Source: a virus
Taxonomy: Duplodnaviria; Heunggongvirae; Uroviricota; Caudoviricetes
DNA length: 64,000 bases
Direction: 5' to 3' (one strand)
IMG/VR virus record: IMGVR_UViG_3300029746_000007
Location: 19,505-83,504 of that record
In this document: positions 18,010-36,509 of the stretch, piece after piece
Numbering within the stretch: position 1 is the stretch's first letter
Layout of the letters: every line of letters starts with the position of its first letter
The notes under the pieces: generated by a model
Told to the model about the DNA's origin: nothing
The model's input: only the letters and a program-made list of their open reading frames with translations
Databases searched by the model: none
Translations under genes and position numbers: made by a program

Positions 18010-18163
18010 GTTACTTAAAAATAAATAGACGGAGAATAAATAATAGGAAAGGAAGTGATAGATATGTGTGAAAAGATTGATGAAAAGAATCCGGATGTTC
18101 AGGAGAAAGAAGTCAGGCGAATGGAAGTTTGGGAATATTTAGAATGGAAGGTTGGTGAGAAGA

Positions 18164-19213
18164 ATGAAAAAGACAGATAAATTAAAAAAACAATTACAGG
18201 ATAAAATCATCACAATGGATGAATTAGATATTACAATGGAAGACATCGGATATAATCTGGTAGAAATTGATGACAATGAAAACAACGTGATTAAATATAC
18301 AAATGGAAAGTCATTTATCAATGTATATGTCATGCATGATGGACAAGAATATATGGTAACGGATATTACGATGTCCAATAAGAAACGTGGTAGCACAACT
18401 GTAAGAGCATTTCATACAATTGAAGAAATAAAAGGAATGATGGATTGGTTCAGAGACAATGAGCAATATGATAATTTCTTGACTTTTATGTTAGGCTTAT
18501 TCCTTGCAAGACGTGTTGGTGATACGTTGTCATTAAAGTGGAGAGACTTCTACTTTGAAAATGGTAGAAGAAAAGAAAGTCTTAATACATTAATTGAAGA
18601 TAAAACCGACAAAATAGTTGATATGCATATTTCTGATGTTACGTGGAAATATATTGATTGGTATTGTGAAAAAACAAATATTGATCCAAAAGAACATCTC
18701 AATGAGGATATCTTTAAATCTTTGCATAAAGATTGGTTGCCGAATAATTATACGAAAAAACAATATGATGAAGCTGTAGAAAAAATGGAATCTTCATATC
18801 GTAATCAATTTAAAAAGGCAGCAGAAGCGTGTGGAATCAATGGTGTAAGTACACATAGCACACGTAAGTCATTTGGATATATAGCGCATGAAATTAACAG
18901 ATTTGATCCAGATTGCTATCCGGTATTACAGAGTGTGTATGGTCATGGTTCTGTAGAAACAACAAAAAGATACATTGATTGCATAAGAGAGAAAGCAAAT
19001 AAGATGTTTGAAGATGTAGCAAAATACATTGAAGATGTAGATAATGGGATAACACCTGAAATAAAGAATTTACTCATTGTAGCACTTTCGACAAATGATT
19101 TACGAGATGTATTATATACTGCTCTTAAACTTGGAAGAGAAACGAATGTAGAAGATGATGTTGAAAGTATGAATATGCTATTATCTATGGTAGAAGAAAA
19201 GCGTGTATCATGA
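18164..19213 (+). CDS. int: tyrosine recombinase / phage integrase
   Basis: motifs ARRVGDTLSLKWRDF (Arg I), HSTRKSF (HxxR box) and HGSVETTKRYI (catalytic Tyr) are typical of the tyrosine-recombinase family; the ATG at 18164 follows GGTGAGAAG. Confidence 0.85.
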   Translation: MKKTDKLKKQLQDKIITMDELDITMEDIGYNLVEIDDNENNVIKYTNGKSFINVYVMHDGQEYMVTDITMSNKKRGSTTVRAFHTIEEIKGMMDWFRDNEQYDNFLTFMLGLFLARRVGDTLSLKWRDFYFENGRRKESLNTLIEDKTDKIVDMHISDVTWKYIDWYCEKTNIDPKEHLNEDIFKSLHKDWLPNNYTKKQYDEAVEKMESSYRNQFKKAAEACGINGVSTHSTRKSFGYIAHEINRFDPDCYPVLQSVYGHGSVETTKRYIDCIREKANKMFEDVAKYIEDVDNGITPEIKNLLIVALSTNDLRDVLYTALKLGRETNVEDDVESMNMLLSMVEEKRVS

Positions 19214-19406: not shown

Positions 19407-19514
19407 GATATATTTGTCAGAAGAAGAGATGGAATTCATTTTATCTTATAGGAAGGCTAATTCTAATGATAAAAAGAAAGCAAAAGAAGTGTTAAAGATA
19501 GAAGGTGATGATAA

Positions 19515-20341: not shown

Positions 20342-20743
20342 ATGGAAAGTAAAAGAAATTTACATCGCTACGATATAATTGAAGCAGAAATTATAATGAA
20401 AGAAACATCTGGATCAATACAGAAGAAAAAACGTCCATATGTGATAGTTGGCAATGAGTTAGGCACAGCAACTGCTCCAACTGTAATTGCTATGCCTTTA
20501 ACTCATGTAATAAAAAGAAAAAATATGCCGGTGCATGGTTGTATTGAAGCTAAAGAAGGAAATGGATTACATCTGTACTCGATGGTTCTTGGCGAACAAC
20601 CTCAGACATTGGACAAAAATCATGAAATCATCAAAAAACTTGGTAATATTGCAGATCAAAAACAAAGAGATATTGTAAATAAAGTTTGCTTTAATACATT
20701 GTTTTACGGTGAAAATATTAAATGGGAGGAAGTGTTAGCATGA
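20342..20743 (+). CDS. mazF: MazF/PemK/EndoA-family endoribonuclease toxin homolog
   Basis: aligns along its length with B. subtilis EndoA (recalled from memory): KKRPYVIVGNELGTATAPTVIAMPLTHVIKRKNMPVHGCIEAKEGNGL vs [61 protein letters not shown] RBS. Confidence 0.75.
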   Translation: MESKRNLHRYDIIEAEIIMKETSGSIQKKKRPYVIVGNELGTATAPTVIAMPLTHVIKRKNMPVHGCIEAKEGNGLHLYSMVLGEQPQTLDKNHEIIKKLGNIADQKQRDIVNKVCFNTLFYGENIKWEEVLA

Positions 20744-24221: not shown

Positions 24222-24757
24222 TGAAAACAATGAAATTATCCGATATTAAAATTACGGAGGCTTTTGAAAGTACTCATCCAAGTCCAGATAAAATTAGGAA
24301 GAAAAAAGAGCAGTGGCTAAAGACTGGTAGACAGGGGAAATACATAGTTGTAAATAAAGATGGATATCTTGTAGATGGATATATTACATATCTTATTATG
24401 AAAGAGTTAGGCGTTGAAAAAGCGAAAATTATTAAAAAGAAATCATGGATGAATCCGATTGAAAGTTTGGAAATTAAAGAACCTGCCTATAGAACAGAGA
24501 ATACTACATATGTGTGGGGTGTTCATCCAAATTCTCCGGATAATAAACTGTATGTTTGGAGAGTTCCGAATGGTGGAAACTGGAATGAATTCAAAAAGAA
24601 TATAACCGTAGGAGATATGATTTTCTGTTACGCAAAAGGGAAGGTGTCTCCGGTGATCATTAAAGCGATTCAGACTACAGATGTTTGCCCGACACCATTG
24701 GATGTGAAGAAGGTTTGTAGTAAGAATATTGTGAAAGAAAGTGAGAACAATGCCTGA
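24221..24757 (+). CDS. ParB N-terminal-like domain protein with C-terminal PUA/EVE-like region
   Basis: GKYIVVNKDGYLVDGYITYLIMKELGVEKAKII fits the ParB N-domain pattern; C-terminal YVWGVHPNSPDNKLYVWRVPNGGNW block suggests an EVE/PUA-type fold; ATGA overlap with the upstream gene. Confidence 0.45.
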   Translation: MKTMKLSDIKITEAFESTHPSPDKIRKKKEQWLKTGRQGKYIVVNKDGYLVDGYITYLIMKELGVEKAKIIKKKSWMNPIESLEIKEPAYRTENTTYVWGVHPNSPDNKLYVWRVPNGGNWNEFKKNITVGDMIFCYAKGKVSPVIIKAIQTTDVCPTPLDVKKVCSKNIVKESENNA

Positions 24758-24922
24758 TATTACGATGTGCATGAGTAAAGATTGTCCCAAAAAGAATGAA
24801 TGTTATCGTTCTATGGCAAAACCAGATAAATATTATCAAAGCTATGCTGATTATGGAAAGATTTGCTTAGAAAATGATTATAAATACTTTTGGGAAACAA
24901 TTGTTCAAAAGAAAGAATAAAT
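24755..24922 (+). CDS. small Cys-rich protein (CxxC-like)
   Basis: MCMSKDCPKKNECYRS; its stop codon lies inside a 22-bp direct repeat. Confidence 0.3.
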
Positions 24923-24929
24923 CAATAGA
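24908..24929. repeat. 22-bp direct repeat copy 1 (AAAGAAAGAATAAATCAATAGA)
   Basis: exact second copy at 25165..25186. Confidence 0.8.
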
Positions 24930-25164
24930 TAATATTTCTGGTAGCCACTAAGCAGGGTAATTATCGTGTCGGATAATTACGCCAGTGTTCACAAACAAGT
25001 TCCCATCTGTTAAGACGGAACCGCTTGTATGCACGTACGTGCACCTTTGGTCTACTCATACAATCAACTCCTTTCATGTGTCGTTAAGGTTTAAATACCA
25101 TACGATCACTTGGGACAAGTTGAAATTGCACTTAGTGACTACCATTAATATACATTATACGTCT

Positions 25165-25186
25165 AAAGAAAGAATAAATCAATAGA
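25165..25186. repeat. 22-bp direct repeat copy 2
   Basis: exact copy of 24908..24929; the pair flanks a 235-bp GC-richer segment. Confidence 0.8.
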
Positions 25187-25422
25187 CATGAATTTTAGGT
25201 TTCAAAGGCAGAAAAGTTTGGCGACCGACCTGCCTAAGAAACCCAGGATAACAAAGGATAAACCTTGTTAGTTCTTATTATAAATAGTTCTAATGGCTTG
25301 GTCAAGTCAGTTTTATCCTTAAGAAATTAAAAATATCGCAGGTGGTTTTGCTCCTGAAGGTGAGTATCAATACAAACCAGAATCTATGTAAATAATATGT
25401 GTAAAGATTTGAGGTTTTGGAT

Positions 25423-25515
25423 ACCTATAGAATTACATTGGTACAAAACCGAAATCCATCTGCAAGTCCTGTCCAAACAGATTCAGACACCTATAGAATT
25501 ACATTGGTACAAAAC
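25423..25515. CRISPR. CRISPR-like minimal unit: two identical 27-bp repeats (ACCTATAGAATTACATTGGTACAAAAC) around a 39-bp GC-richer unique spacer
   Basis: repeat 1 at 25423..25449, spacer 25450..25488, repeat 2 at 25489..25515; the flanks differ; iterons are an alternative reading. Confidence 0.35.
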
Positions 25516-25595
25516 AGAGATATCTAATTTAACATAGTAACAAAAAACATAATTAAAATTAATATACAAATTTATATAAGTAATGAGGTGATAAA

Positions 25596-25745
25596 AATGT
25601 TCATGTTGGTAACACATATTATATTGATGCTATTTTGCATATATGAAGTGGCTTATCAGGATAGAAAATCTCAAAAAGCCATATGGACATGCATGGCGAT
25701 ATGTTGGCTTGGAATGATACTTTGTGATATTCCGACGGTGTTTTG
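25596..25745 (+). CDS. small membrane protein (2 predicted TM helices)
   Basis: AATGAGGTGATAAAA RBS; MFMLVTHIILMLFCIYEV ... AIWTCMAICWLGMILC. Confidence 0.3.
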
Positions 25746-25789
25746 ACAACCGGAAGAAGAAATATATAACAAGAAAGGAAATAAAAAAC

Positions 25790-27847
25790 ATGGAAGGTTT
25801 TATTAAATTTAAGAGTGAATTACAGAAGCATTTTGAAGAAATGCAGGAAAATGTAACGCAGTTATTTGAAGTAGATGTTGATAAAGATGAGCTTTGGAAT
25901 ACATATCTTGATAGTTTTTCGGCTGGAACAAATGAAATTTTCAGAGAAAGAAGAGAACATGATTGTAGTTGCTGTAGACATTTTATTAAGAATATTGGTG
26001 CAGCAGTATCTATTAAAGACAATAAAATACATACGATTTGGGAACTTAATCTTGGTGATACTACATATCAGCCAGTATGCGATGCGCTTGATAAATATGT
26101 AAAAGCTCATTCTGTTATCGGCATGTATACTAGTAAGTTTAAAAATATTGGAACTGATTACAATTACGAAGAAATTAATGGAAAGCCACATAAATGGGAT
26201 CATTTCTTCTTGACGTTGCCTAGAAGATTTGTGAATGAATCAAATAAGTCAAATGAAGAAGTAAAGGGACAGTTCAGAGATACAAGAAATGTATTCAAAC
26301 GATCGCTTGATGAAATCACAATGGATGCGGTTAATACAATTCTTGAATTGATTAATTCTAACACTCTTTATAAAGGAGAAGAATGGAAAGCTGTACTTAC
26401 TGAATTCAAAAAATACAAGAAAGAATATGACAAATTATCAAGCGAATCAGAAAAAGAATTATATGCATGGGAGAAATCAGCAACGGCAGGCATGACGATC
26501 GGAAGAATTAGAAATCATTCTATCGGGACGCTTCTCGTAAATGTAAGTAATGATATGGATCTTGACACTGCTGTTAAAAAATATGAGCAGATTGTAGCTC
26601 CGGCAAATTATAAAAGACCGAAAGCTATTTTTACAAAGAAAATGCTTGAAGATGCTAAGAAAACAATTACAGAACTCGGTTATATGGAATCATTGCAGAG
26701 AAGATTCGCAAACTTAAATGATATTACAGTAAACAATGTACTGTTTTCAAATAAGAGCGCAACAGGAAGGATGCTTGGAGCAGATGACATTTTCGGTCAG
26801 ATGGAAAAAGAAGTAGTCACAAGTCCGAAGAAATTTTCAAAGGTTGAAGAGATTCCTGTGCAAGATTTTATTGATAAGGTACTTCCAACTGCAAAAGAAG
26901 TCGAAGCATATGTAGAGAATAAGCATGAAAAGAATTTTGTATCTATGATTGCTCCTGTGAATCCGAACTCTAAACCGATGTTTAAATGGGGGAATAGACT
27001 TAGCTGGGCATACACAGGTAATATTACCGATTCTGACATGAAACAGAAAGTAAAGGCAGCCGGTGGAAATGTAGAAGGAGTATTAAGATTCTCTATTCAG
27101 TGGAACGAAGACGGACGAGATAATTGTGATCTTGATGCACATTGTATCGAGCCAGACAAGAATCATATTTATTTTGGCAATTGTAGAAAACCACGTCCAT
27201 CTAAGATGACAGGAGAGTTAGATGTTGACGTAATTAATCCTTGTGGTCGTGTTGCTGTAGAAAATATTACTTGGTCTGATTTATCAAAGATGAAACCGGG
27301 TGTGTATAAGTTCTTTGTAAATCAGTTTAGCGGATCTGTTAGGAAAGGATTTAGAGCAGAAATTGAATTTAATGGAGAGTTGTATAAATTTGATTATAAC
27401 AAATCTATGAGAAGTGGAGAAAATGTACAAGTTGCAGAAGTGACACTTGACAAAGATGGTAATTTTTCTATCAAAGAGGAACTTGCTGGAAATTCTTCAA
27501 TTTCAAGCCATGAAGTTTGGGGTGTAAATACAAATAAATTTATTCCCGTTTCTGTCATTAGTTATAGTCCGAATTATTTTGATGGTCAGGACGGAATTGG
27601 ACATAGACATTTGTTCTTTTTCTTAAAAGATTGTGTAAATGCTGAAGAACCAAATGGGTTCTATAATGAATTTTTAAAGCAGGATTTACAAAAGCACAAA
27701 AGAGTATTTGAGGCTCTTGGAGCGAAATGTCATGTAGAAGACACAGAAGATCAGCTTTCTGGAATCGGATTCTCTATGACAAAAAGATCGGATTTGATTG
27801 TAAAAGTCAAGGGTGCGACAGAGCGTGTGATGAAGATTAAATTTTAA
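25790..27847 (+). CDS. large hypothetical protein (686 aa), no recognised domain
   Basis: long uninterrupted ORF; AGAAAGGAAATAAAAAAC RBS before the ATG at 25790 (the ORF track starts at an upstream GTG at 25724). Confidence 0.6.
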   Translation: MEGFIKFKSELQKHFEEMQENVTQLFEVDVDKDELWNTYLDSFSAGTNEIFRERREHDCSCCRHFIKNIGAAVSIKDNKIHTIWELNLGDTTYQPVCDALDKYVKAHSVIGMYTSKFKNIGTDYNYEEINGKPHKWDHFFLTLPRRFVNESNKSNEEVKGQFRDTRNVFKRSLDEITMDAVNTILELINSNTLYKGEEWKAVLTEFKKYKKEYDKLSSESEKELYAWEKSATAGMTIGRIRNHSIGTLLVNVSNDMDLDTAVKKYEQIVAPANYKRPKAIFTKKMLEDAKKTITELGYMESLQRRFANLNDITVNNVLFSNKSATGRMLGADDIFGQMEKEVVTSPKKFSKVEEIPVQDFIDKVLPTAKEVEAYVENKHEKNFVSMIAPVNPNSKPMFKWGNRLSWAYTGNITDSDMKQKVKAAGGNVEGVLRFSIQWNEDGRDNCDLDAHCIEPDKNHIYFGNCRKPRPSKMTGELDVDVINPCGRVAVENITWSDLSKMKPGVYKFFVNQFSGSVRKGFRAEIEFNGELYKFDYNKSMRSGENVQVAEVTLDKDGNFSIKEELAGNSSISSHEVWGVNTNKFIPVSVISYSPNYFDGQDGIGHRHLFFFLKDCVNAEEPNGFYNEFLKQDLQKHKRVFEALGAKCHVEDTEDQLSGIGFSMTKRSDLIVKVKGATERVMKIKF

Positions 27848-35453: not shown

Positions 35454-36509
35454 TTGATGACAGATTATTTCTCGCAAAAACCTAATAGTATTGTTGTTTG
35501 TTCGAATGGTGGAGCGCAAAGAGGACATACTGTAGTTACCTCAACTGGAATCAGACATGTCTTTCATCATTTTGGCTCAGGGACTTTCAATCAAGCGGAT
35601 ACATATCTCTCAGAAGACTTTATTTGCAATCCGATTATTTTTAAGCAAGAATACAATGAATTAAAACAACTAGGCTATTGTCCGAACATTTATATAAATC
35701 AACATTGTATGGTAACAACTCCATATGATATGATGGCTAATCAAATTATAGAAGAGAAACGTGGAAAGAATAAGCATGGAAGTTGTGGTCTTGGAATTTA
35801 TGAGACAATTAAAAGATATAAAGCCGGAGTAACTACTTTGTATGCCTCCGATTATATCCGAGATTATTACTTAAAGATTTTCGACAGAGAAGGAATTGTC
35901 TTAACTAAGAAATGGGAAGATTTGTTCAATGATTCAGGAATTTACGATCATTGTTTGGAAGATTGGGATTTTATGAACGAAGTAGCAACAACGATTTCTG
36001 ATGAATGTTTTCTCAATGAGTACGAGAATATAGTATTTGAAGCTGCACAAGGTCTTTTACTTGATCAAAATAATCTGAAATATTATCCACATCTTACACC
36101 CTCTAACACAGGAATAAAAAATCCAAAGAAAATAATTGAAAATGTGAAATGGGACGATGATATTAACATTGAGACATGTTATGTGTCAAGGACATATTTA
36201 ACAAGGCATGGAGCAGGGCAATTCCCATCTGAATGTGACAAGTCGCTAATCAATCAAAGAATGTATGATAAGACTAATGTTCCAAATCCGCATCAAGATA
36301 CTTTGAGATATGGTTTGCTCGATTTAGATCAATTATACGATAGATGTATAAAAGATGTTGAAGGTTTTGGACATAAAAAATCTATTGTGTTTACACATAT
36401 AAATGAATACTCCATGAGTAAAAAAAGAATTAAGAGTCTATTTGACGATTGGGACATCTATTTTTCAGACGGCGAGACACATAATGATATATATAGAATA
36501 AATAATTAA
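35454..36509 (+). CDS. adenylosuccinate synthetase-family protein (PurA homolog; candidate PurZ-type enzyme); N-terminus unresolved
   Basis: SNGGAQRGHT, FEAAQGLLLD and TRHGAGQFPSE align with PurA motifs GGHNAGHT, FEGAQGTLLD and TRVGAGPFPTE (PurA sequence recalled from memory); the P-loop GDEGKG is encoded in frame at 35436..35453, before the first start codon and after an in-frame TAG at 35418. Confidence 0.7.
   Translation: MMTDYFSQKPNSIVVCSNGGAQRGHTVVTSTGIRHVFHHFGSGTFNQADTYLSEDFICNPIIFKQEYNELKQLGYCPNIYINQHCMVTTPYDMMANQIIEEKRGKNKHGSCGLGIYETIKRYKAGVTTLYASDYIRDYYLKIFDREGIVLTKKWEDLFNDSGIYDHCLEDWDFMNEVATTISDECFLNEYENIVFEAAQGLLLDQNNLKYYPHLTPSNTGIKNPKKIIENVKWDDDINIETCYVSRTYLTRHGAGQFPSECDKSLINQRMYDKTNVPNPHQDTLRYGLLDLDQLYDRCIKDVEGFGHKKSIVFTHINEYSMSKKRIKSLFDDWDIYFSDGETHNDIYRINN

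Follow-up and report, generated by a model that had tools for sequence, protein, structure and literature searches.

The 64,000-nt stretch of DNA analyzed here (the window) covers positions 19,505 to 83,504 of IMG/VR record IMGVR_UViG_3300029746_000007, from a low-GC (31.9%) large phage of the Caudoviricetes, and the subject of the analysis is the interval at 24758-25789 of this window. An original prediction had described the interval as a 1-kb non-coding island. About one-fifth of it is, however, occupied by a gene, g56, for a 56-aa Cys-rich protein (phrog_20586, E = 2.4e-6). Given that this ORF (24750-24920, + strand) is coding, the non-coding stretch reduces to 24921-25596 (676 bp). Downstream of g56 lie, in order, a 235-bp cassette bounded by 22-nt direct repeats (block A), a structured leader (leader A), a CRISPR array with a single spacer, an AT-rich stretch and a gene for a 49-aa hydrophobic peptide; a gene for a conserved 685-aa phage protein follows.

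For comparison, 80 gut-phage contigs were fetched via the 685-aa protein (81-97% identity), and further relatives were obtained by exact-word scans and by look-up of the small proteins of the window in public assemblies; collected loci are designated by L numbers. The phages belong to a family of human-gut phages of roughly 90-220 kb that share an accessory slot. Among relatives, the distance between the 56-aa and 685-aa genes ranges from 332 bp to 6 kb, and the interval is a hypervariable accessory hot spot. In the window, the slot carries two independent modules, namely the RNA half of a CRISPR system and the 235-bp cassette. The leader and the array, which had been listed as separate elements, form one functional unit.

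The CRISPR mini-array, its leader and the deleted nuclease gene

The array occupies 25414-25515 on the + strand and consists of repeat R1 (GTTTTGGATACCTATAGAATTACATTGGTACAAAAC, 25414-25449), a spacer (CGAAATCCATCTGCAAGTCCTGTCCAAACA, 25450-25479) and the terminal repeat R2 (GATTCAGACACCTATAGAATTACATTGGTACAAAAC, 25480-25515), giving 36 + 30 + 36 nt and a period of 66 nt. The two repeats share an identical 27-nt core, and none of 100 shuffles gave any match. These are direct repeats within the 23-55-nt range of CRISPR repeats, arranged around a unique spacer of which no second copy was found in the window. Homologous repeats adjoin nucleases in L004, L015, L026, L029, L060, L068, L140, L143 and L148-L152. 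Repeats are conserved, foreign protospacers are matched and spacers are variable, differing among the window, L153 and L140 and being missing from array B of L004. The unit, predicted as CRISPR-like, is a genuine CRISPR mini-array of a repeat family shared with nuclease loci. A type II (Cas9) reading on the minus strand, suggested by the GTTTT...AAAAC termini and the 36/30 geometry, was considered and dropped because the type V nucleases, leaders and arrays of the relatives all lie on the + strand; it is also opposed by the G-U pairs of the leader helix, which are standard only on that strand. The 27-nt core had no exact match in 185,579 bacterial and archaeal species genomes (one each), an incomplete test for a repeat taken from the host, which is unknown.

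In the relatives, the slot houses nucleases of two kinds. Related 36-nt repeats with a 66-nt period are present in L015, L026, L029, L060 and L068 as up to three short arrays around a 462-aa protein, each array being preceded by a conserved leader. By homology, this protein is assigned to Cas12f (PDB 8hr5, E = 1e-87; Cas12f entries, 1e-62 to ~1e-25; Pfam Cas12f1-like TNB domain), and L149, L150 and L152 carry Cas12f-like proteins of 545-548 aa. A 503-aa protein found in the slot of L004, L140, L143 and L148 is, on the same kind of evidence, assigned as a TranC/TnpB-like nuclease (LaTranC 9jfo, E = 7e-35; ISDra2 TnpB, E = 2e-30). The Cas12f-like proteins (462 or 545-548 aa) and the 503-aa nuclease share ∼31% identity over 74 aa, and homologous leaders and repeats flank both; the explanation would be either interchangeability of the RNA modules or in situ replacement of one nuclease by the other. 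Nuclease loci in the slot (L068 2179-3567, L150 4570-6207, L143 4218-5729 and L140 2501-4009) have identical neighboring genes. Three separate mini-arrays with three repeat variants were observed in the Cas12f-bearing relatives, the anti-repeat of each leader covarying with its own repeat (L029 2327-2800 and 4340-4440; L068 1536-2130 and 3678-3713). In array II of L068 the same spacer occurs twice in tandem, and it is also found in array III of L015. ORF maps and Pfam labels revealed no cas1 or cas2 in the window or beside the arrays of the relatives; lack of an adaptation module is typical of TranC and phage type V loci (bioRxiv 10.64898/2026.03.27.714800).

Leader A comprises the 227 nt directly upstream of the array (25187-25413, + strand) and ends with ATTTGAG abutting the first repeat. 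It had been described as a second structured, GC-richer segment. The GC content proved only slightly elevated (0.34), whereas the structure is supported by covariation in relatives. When folded as a single sequence, the segment gives weak z-scores of −1.0 (+ strand) and −2.6 (− strand). It is 100% identical in L004, L143, L148 and L153, and the whole of it can be aligned with the array I leader of Cas12f-bearing phages, with which it shares the motif ATCTATGTAA. A hairpin at 25197-25244 has a stem that covaries (AGGCAG/CTGCCT vs CAGATTG/CAATCTG) and a conserved loop (AAGTTTGGCGACC, 25214-25226) with one substitution, in L068. Long-range pairing joins 25254-25265 with 25309-25320 (AGGATAAAC/GTTTATCCT), and a second hairpin at 25339-25356 is common to the leaders of the Cas12f phages. 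An anti-repeat, ATCTATGTAAAT, which pairs with the CRISPR repeat, lies at 25382-25393. The best sigma-70-like site in the island (minus strand 25305-25277, TTGACC-17-TATAAT, 11/12) lies inside the leader and faces away from the array; around block A and the leader, such promoters were no commoner than in shuffles.

Pairing between leader and repeat was assessed with 11 leader plus first-repeat sequences. RNAalifold independently paired the ATCTATGTAA motif with repeat positions 19-29. Across the resulting 11-bp anti-repeat/repeat helix and a 6-bp hairpin, 96.8% of cells were paired, compared with 78.8% after shuffling (none of 500 shuffles reached the observed value), and pairing fell to 20-42% when the partner was slid. 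Changes on both sides were found at nine pairs across the helix and hairpin, and the 11 leader/repeat pairs show compensatory changes in five pairs of the helix. In the window, 10 of 12 anti-repeat positions pair with the repeat. The window is the only one of the 11 sequences with mismatches inside the helix (one internal U-U and one terminal A-A), as expected for a chimera of leader A with a B-type repeat (see below).

The tracrRNAs (trans-activating CRISPR RNAs) of Cas12f and TranC are defined by an anti-repeat in a structured RNA beside the array, with a threshold of at least 6 of 10 bases within the last 16 of the repeat (bioRxiv 10.64898/2026.03.27.714800), and such pairing is present here. 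Given that the leader has an anti-repeat covarying with the repeat, it can be described as tracrRNA-like. Upstream of the anti-repeat, ∼195 nt contain three to four supported helices, where tracrRNAs are expected to have 120-200 nt and four to five stem-loops and to be encoded between effector and array.

The origin of this arrangement is visible in L143, a 175.5-kb ENA scaffold found via the 49-aa peptide. Here, the 56-aa gene is followed by a single 22-nt repeat, the leader, an A-type array of three repeats and the 503-aa nuclease gene; then come leader B (anti-repeat ATCAATGTAAT), GTTTCAGACACCTATAGAATTACATTGGTACAAAAC, the spacer CGAAATCCATCTGCAAGTCCTGTCCAAACA and GATTCAGACACC...CAAAAC, and after array B the same AT-rich flank, the peptide gene and the 685-aa gene. 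Array B of L143 thus carries the exact spacer and B-type terminal repeat of the window. When judged against the repeats of L143, L004 and L148, R1 of the window takes its 5′ end from the first A repeat and its 3′ end from the first B repeat. Given the shared spacer and terminal repeat and the chimeric R1, the window corresponds to L143 minus 1,816 bp, with the deletion junction inside R1; the absent segment comprises the array A spacers, the nuclease gene and leader B. Searches by tblastn and by phmmer on six-frame translations found no Cas12f, TranC or TnpB nuclease in the 64-kb window, and the effector gene that adjoins the array in a type V locus is missing. In IMG/VR, B-type repeats were found only on two nuclease-bearing contigs.

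A further nuclease-less variant was observed at L153 4438-4847 (ENA ERZ28563853 scaffold_2829), in which block A, the leader, the AT-rich flank and the peptide gene are 100% identical to those of the window. Here the junction falls where the leader ends, the array opens with an intact B-type repeat and the spacer (TCTTTGCAAAGGTTGCAGAAGAATGTGTTA) is another one. Given this other junction and other spacer, either the nuclease was lost more than once or the array was exchanged later. The earlier suggestion that the island is horizontally acquired non-coding cargo stands only in part: a mini-array, an ncRNA (non-coding RNA)-type leader and a presence/absence cassette do lie in a hot spot, but the array is the remnant of a 1.8-kb deletion that removed the nuclease gene and not newly acquired cargo.

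The spacer matches a protospacer in IMGVR_UViG_3300045988_158504 at 30 of 30 positions (chance expectation by our estimate ∼1e-7). The protospacer has a T-rich 5′ flank (TTTTT; GAATTTTT) and no flanking repeats, and it falls in codons just past the catalytic-Tyr region of a 311-aa tyrosine integrase (phrog_1, E = 2e-33), the gene for which adjoins a cluster of four tRNA genes. Of 53 small viral contigs, mostly 10-19 kb long (L084 1-11423 and L085-L136), the majority have a homologue of the integrase close to one end, and the protospacer is kept with 2-4 mismatches in 18 further contigs (19 with the exact-match contig). The target contig also encodes Ig-domain, scaffolding and major head proteins, and the element would be either a small temperate phage or a capsid-forming satellite. 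The array I spacer of the Cas12f-bearing L029 and L068 matches another site of the same element family at 29 of 30 positions in at least 10 contigs. Given that a second, unrelated spacer also matches this family, the targeting is recurrent.

A search of the collected loci for protospacers of 20 other spacers gave a target for just one further spacer, and neither the spacer of L153 nor one from L140 had an informative match in phage collections. The protospacer had no match in species-representative genomes, and comparison of the target element with isolated phages returned tRNA matches only.

The 235-bp cassette

Block A (24930-25164) is flanked by perfect direct repeats of 22 nt, AAAGAAAGAATAAATCAATAGA, at 24908-24929 and 25165-25186, which extend to 25 nt if one mismatch is allowed; shuffles gave a mean of 0.04 such matches, and none reached 2. 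Both the perfect repeats and the GC-richer segment between them had been predicted and were borne out, the GC content of block A being 0.40 (0.43 in its core) against 0.32 for the window. GC skew reverses sign within the block. The final codons and the stop of g56 lie inside the left repeat, a lone copy of which is present in the block-less relatives L004, L143 and L146.

The comparison with related phages that had been proposed for recognizing inserted blocks was informative in this respect. L146, in which the 56-aa gene is identical, provides an exact empty site, and filled sites are found in the window, L002, L003, L137, L138, L144, L145, L147, L151 and L153. The 235-bp block together with one 22-nt repeat is thus a clean presence/absence cassette of 257 bp. 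It always lies directly 3′ of the 56-aa gene and is followed by the leader, the 685-aa gene or a 152-aa gene, and it is independent of the CRISPR module. Seven copies scored by BLAST are 99.6-100% identical, and copies differ at few positions, three of them inside the 235 bp; the genes beside it are less similar (∼93% for the 685-aa gene and ∼80% for the 178-aa gene upstream of g56). Such a pattern suggests that block A was either recently exchanged or strongly constrained.

A structured core was predicted at 24940-25143, closed by a 13-bp stem (GGTAGCCACTAAG/CTTAGTGACTACC) and forming a multi-branch fold; it includes a perfect 14-nt palindrome, TGCACGTACGTGCA, at 25030-25043. Fold z-scores for block A were −5.0 on the + strand and −6.8 on the − strand. 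The core has a predicted energy of −76.0 kcal/mol with nine G-U pairs on the minus strand, compared with −64.9 kcal/mol with four G-U pairs on the plus strand. Block A is thus most likely a candidate for a highly structured ncRNA of ∼200 nt, and from the strand asymmetry of the predicted fold we infer that such an RNA would probably be encoded on the minus strand. Strongly folded and nearly invariant, the block is worth testing as a new ncRNA.

The Rfam search that the original prediction had proposed found no family in any island element: neither the whole island nor each element alone gave more than best E-values of 0.05-8, with scores far under the gathering thresholds, and block A itself matched no family. 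A covariance model of block A run over 76 loci (1.2 Mb of relatives) found no homologue, six-frame protein comparison matched only its own copies and blastn yielded no match among phages or plasmids. When IMG/VR and metagenomes were scanned for exact words, this cassette at its usual site was all that turned up, and no other copies were found in the window, the 1.2 Mb of relatives, IMG/VR or the metagenome scan.

It is conceivable, if clearly less probable than an RNA, that block A acts as DNA, being either a miniature mobile or recombination cassette, whose 22-nt repeats would be att-like cores or a target duplication and whose ends would be the 13-bp inverted repeat, or a regulatory region bound by protein at the TGCACGTACGTGCA palindrome. 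Empty and filled sites do differ precisely by the block plus one repeat, near-identical copies amid flanks differing by 7-20% suggest recent spread and the inverted repeat near both ends and the perfect palindrome would suit such a role. Yet the only insertion site follows the 56-aa gene, with one copy per genome, and the inverted repeats lie 10 and 21 nt from the direct repeats instead of next to them; an origin as a miniature inverted-repeat transposable element or from an insertion sequence (IS) found no support on these same grounds. The multi-branch fold, with z-scores down to −6.8, and the G-U strand asymmetry fit an RNA better.

On the + strand, positions 25089-25119 of block A loosely resemble the CRISPR repeat (GTTTAAATACCATACGATCACTTGGGACAAG), and a duplex of the complement with R1 has an energy of −23.4 kcal/mol. 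The possibility that block A contains a degenerate repeat or anti-repeat was considered, but with duplex z-scores of −2.7 to −3.3 and a local-alignment z-score of 3.0 (reached by 3 of 300 shuffles) among 16 tests, the resemblance was treated as chance.

Proposed origin of the guide module and alternatives

Taken together, the data make it probable that the window carries the RNA half of a miniature, phage-borne CRISPR system of type V, the nuclease having been deleted, beside an unrelated structured cassette. The module (25187-25515) would be free of adaptation genes and consist of the ∼230-nt tracrRNA-like leader and the repeat-spacer-repeat unit, both read from the + strand. In the ancestral arrangement, as in L143, leader A, array A, the 503-aa nuclease gene, leader B, array B and the 49-aa peptide gene would have followed one another; the first repeats of arrays A and B would then have recombined and 1,816 bp been excised, leaving leader A joined via a chimeric repeat to array B. 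The spacer left in place would be a perfectly matching guide to the 3′ end of the gene for the tyrosine integrase of the target element. With a nuclease present, leader and array would be transcribed and processed, and the complex of CRISPR RNA (crRNA) and tracrRNA would cut the element beside a T-rich 5′ protospacer-adjacent motif (PAM), in a form of warfare between phage and mobile element. Lacking a nuclease in cis, the module most likely represents a relic that is recent and still intact, and any present-day activity would require a nuclease supplied in trans.

Several observations weigh against parts of this interpretation. The leader abuts the first repeat and also precedes arrays upstream of the nuclease: in the relatives, leaders B and III sit between nuclease and array, and leader A lies upstream of the array that precedes the nuclease. 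A tracrRNA would not usually be placed in this way, and an omega-RNA-like single transcript would fit as well. The protospacer of the Cas12f-type spacer has the 5′ flank CCCT and not TTTT, and the T-rich PAM is a guess because one protospacer is known for this repeat type. The nuclease search applies to the 64 kb covered of a genome of perhaps 150-175 kb, and a nuclease gene may lie in another part of it. L153 could mean that the nuclease-less state is recurrent and selected and not a dead end. As for block A, it is almost invariant in sequence, so that its predicted structure is based solely on thermodynamics, and its promoter-like hexamers are no commoner than chance.

One alternative, considered rather unlikely, is a guide-only module that is still functional and is kept to load a Cas12f/TranC nuclease supplied in trans, whether it comes from the remainder of the genome, from a sibling phage in co-infection or from the host; a guide against the integrative element would thereby be gained and the cost of a nuclease gene saved. 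The perfect match of the spacer to a real target, the intact leader, repeats and flanks, identical to those of nuclease-bearing relatives, and the leader A/B-repeat duplex, with its two mismatches only, are all as such a module would require; L153, with its other junction and spacer, indicates that the state arose or was remodelled more than once, and siblings with identical neighboring genes carry nucleases at the locus. However, the nuclease gene lies between direct repeats (leaders and arrays), and repeated deletion is therefore expected without selection. Moreover, with 97-100% identity between these flanks and those of nuclease-bearing relatives, decay has had no time to set in, and nothing can be concluded from the intact state. 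The 64 kb contain no nuclease, the nuclease is confined to this locus in every relative examined and the cognate leader B is gone. A bolder and distinctly speculative form of this idea, to which little weight is given, would regard nuclease-less guide cassettes as a maintained swarm strategy that borrows the Cas12f/TranC of siblings via interchangeable scaffolds, and block A as a new ncRNA class of the defence slot; that two distantly related nuclease lineages share the slot with homologous leaders and repeats can be cited in its favor.

Two further explanations are regarded as highly improbable. A classical viral mini-array, in which a host repeat is copied with a spacer and host Cas proteins are turned on a competitor, would agree with the single spacer and non-self target of the published description (PMC11656645), but the 27-nt core is not found exactly in the species genomes searched, all homologous arrays are on phage contigs adjoining phage-encoded nucleases and origin by deletion from a nuclease locus is directly visible. 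Equally hard to sustain is an RNA anti-CRISPR decoy, whose repeat transcripts would sequester the Cas12f/TranC of sibling phages or of the host. Repeat-only viral RNAs are known as inhibitors (PMC11656645), and the downstream array of L004 has shrunk to a single repeat; the unit in the window has, by contrast, a bona fide spacer, a perfect target and a tracrRNA-like partner, which is the make-up of a guide, and none of the collected spacers match the window or its relatives, giving no sign that competitors target the phage.

With the deletion remnant as the preferred reading, the module can be set beside known systems. Viral mini-arrays and phage-encoded compact type V/TranC systems are already known (PMC11656645; bioRxiv 10.64898/2026.03.27.714800). 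TranC systems are described as TnpB-to-Cas12 intermediates in which the omega RNA is split into tracrRNA and crRNA (PMC13565253). The leader, repeats and spacer of the window are orthologous to those of the L143 locus and resemble TranC and Cas12f (type V-F) systems, including those borne by Caudoviricetes (PMC13565253; bioRxiv 10.64898/2026.03.27.714800): the relatives have a TnpB-derived nuclease of 460-550 aa with a RuvC/TNB zinc ribbon and no cas1, cas2 or cas4, together with 36-nt repeats, very short arrays and, in a structured RNA beside the array, an anti-repeat that pairs with the 3′ part of the repeat. Unlike those systems, the window has no nuclease gene, the phage nucleases are flanked by two or three mini-arrays, each with its own covarying, abutting leader, and two distant nuclease lineages occupy one slot with homologous RNA modules. 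Published viral mini-arrays, reviewed together with solitary repeat units (PMC11656645), copy host repeats and mostly target related viruses. The window shares with them a one-spacer array, the absence of adjacent cas genes and a mobile-element target, but its repeats are those of a phage-borne system, a tracrRNA-like gene stands alongside, it is a deletion product and an unrelated small integrative element is targeted. As with the omega RNA or right-end RNA of TnpB, the nuclease ORF is followed immediately downstream by a structured scaffold, which runs on into a repeat-like 3′ segment and then the guide; unlike it, these loci have true repeat-spacer arrays with variable spacers matching foreign DNA, no transposon ends and no TnpA.

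In phage-carried spacers directed against an integrative element, the module also recalls Vibrio phage ICP1, in which a CRISPR-Cas system acting against the PLE satellite was reportedly described by Seed et al. in 2013. The logic is shared, in that a lytic phage aims spacers at an integrative element in the chromosome of its host. ICP1, however, has a complete type I-F system with an adaptation module. Here, by contrast, the system is a miniature type V without adaptation genes, its nuclease is gone from the window and the target element is a possible satellite of this phage.

What is new is the visible mechanism of deletion, the retention of a tracrRNA-like leader with the array, the target family and, in the relatives, the multi-array, multi-leader architecture with nuclease swapping. 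The window provides a base-resolved case of a virus-borne CRISPR system losing its nuclease, with the direct repeats of the system itself driving the deletion, and an orphan tracrRNA with a mini-array remnant offers a concrete origin for at least some viral "mini-arrays". In this human-gut phage family, miniature TnpB-derived nucleases of two lineages swap in one slot, and the multi-leader loci may be useful for understanding the TnpB-to-Cas12 RNA split and for the guide RNAs of compact editors. The spacers indicate recurrent conflict with small integrative elements that encode integrases and capsids.

Genes flanking the interval

The start of g56 overlaps the stop of the 178-aa gene (ATGCCTGA), and the two are translationally coupled. 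Homologues of the 56-aa protein were found in 33 of 81 relatives, and the exact protein is recorded in 101 blocks of public assemblies. The genes upstream of the island had been called ParB-like, but no ParB domain was found in the 481-aa or the 178-aa protein. The right-hand anchor of the variable interval, outside the CRISPR system, is the gene at 25790-27847 (+ strand). Its product, predicted as a 686-aa orphan, is a 685-aa protein assigned by homology to a large phage family (phrog_1735, E = 5e-262), with tblastn matches in 558 phage records, the best of them in Clostridioides and Bacillus myoviruses at ∼59% identity; products of the gene in relatives carry the label DUF8224.

Between the array and the peptide gene lies an AT-rich stretch (25516-25596, 16% GC), which contains the ribosome-binding site of the peptide (GAGGTGA). 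The predicted ORF for a 49-aa peptide with two transmembrane segments was borne out; it lies at 25597-25746 (+ strand), one base from the position first given, and encodes two hydrophobic stretches. Both the AT-rich stretch and the peptide gene are 100% identical in L004, L143, L148 and L153, and the peptide gene is 93-94% identical in L149 and L150. It comes after the downstream array wherever that array is present, and a weakly similar peptide is found at its position in L140.

An extra TnpB-like ORF of 489 aa, followed by ∼170 nt of non-coding DNA, was observed at L004 2911-4377 (same contig as L001 4134-2665). It lies between the 178-aa-type and 56-aa genes, where it substitutes the first codons of the latter, and appears to be an independent IS-type insertion within this hot spot. 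Elsewhere in the window, a 351-aa adenylosuccinate-synthetase-like protein (35454-36509; Pfam E = 9e-30) may be PurZ-like, which would hint at 2-aminoadenine-modified DNA; its neighboring ORFs gave no MazG or HD matches in support. A tyrosine-recombinase-family ORF (18152-19213, E = 4e-9), which the spacer does not match, and a MazF/PemK-family toxin gene (20342-20743, E = 1.5e-15) lie a few kb upstream of the island.

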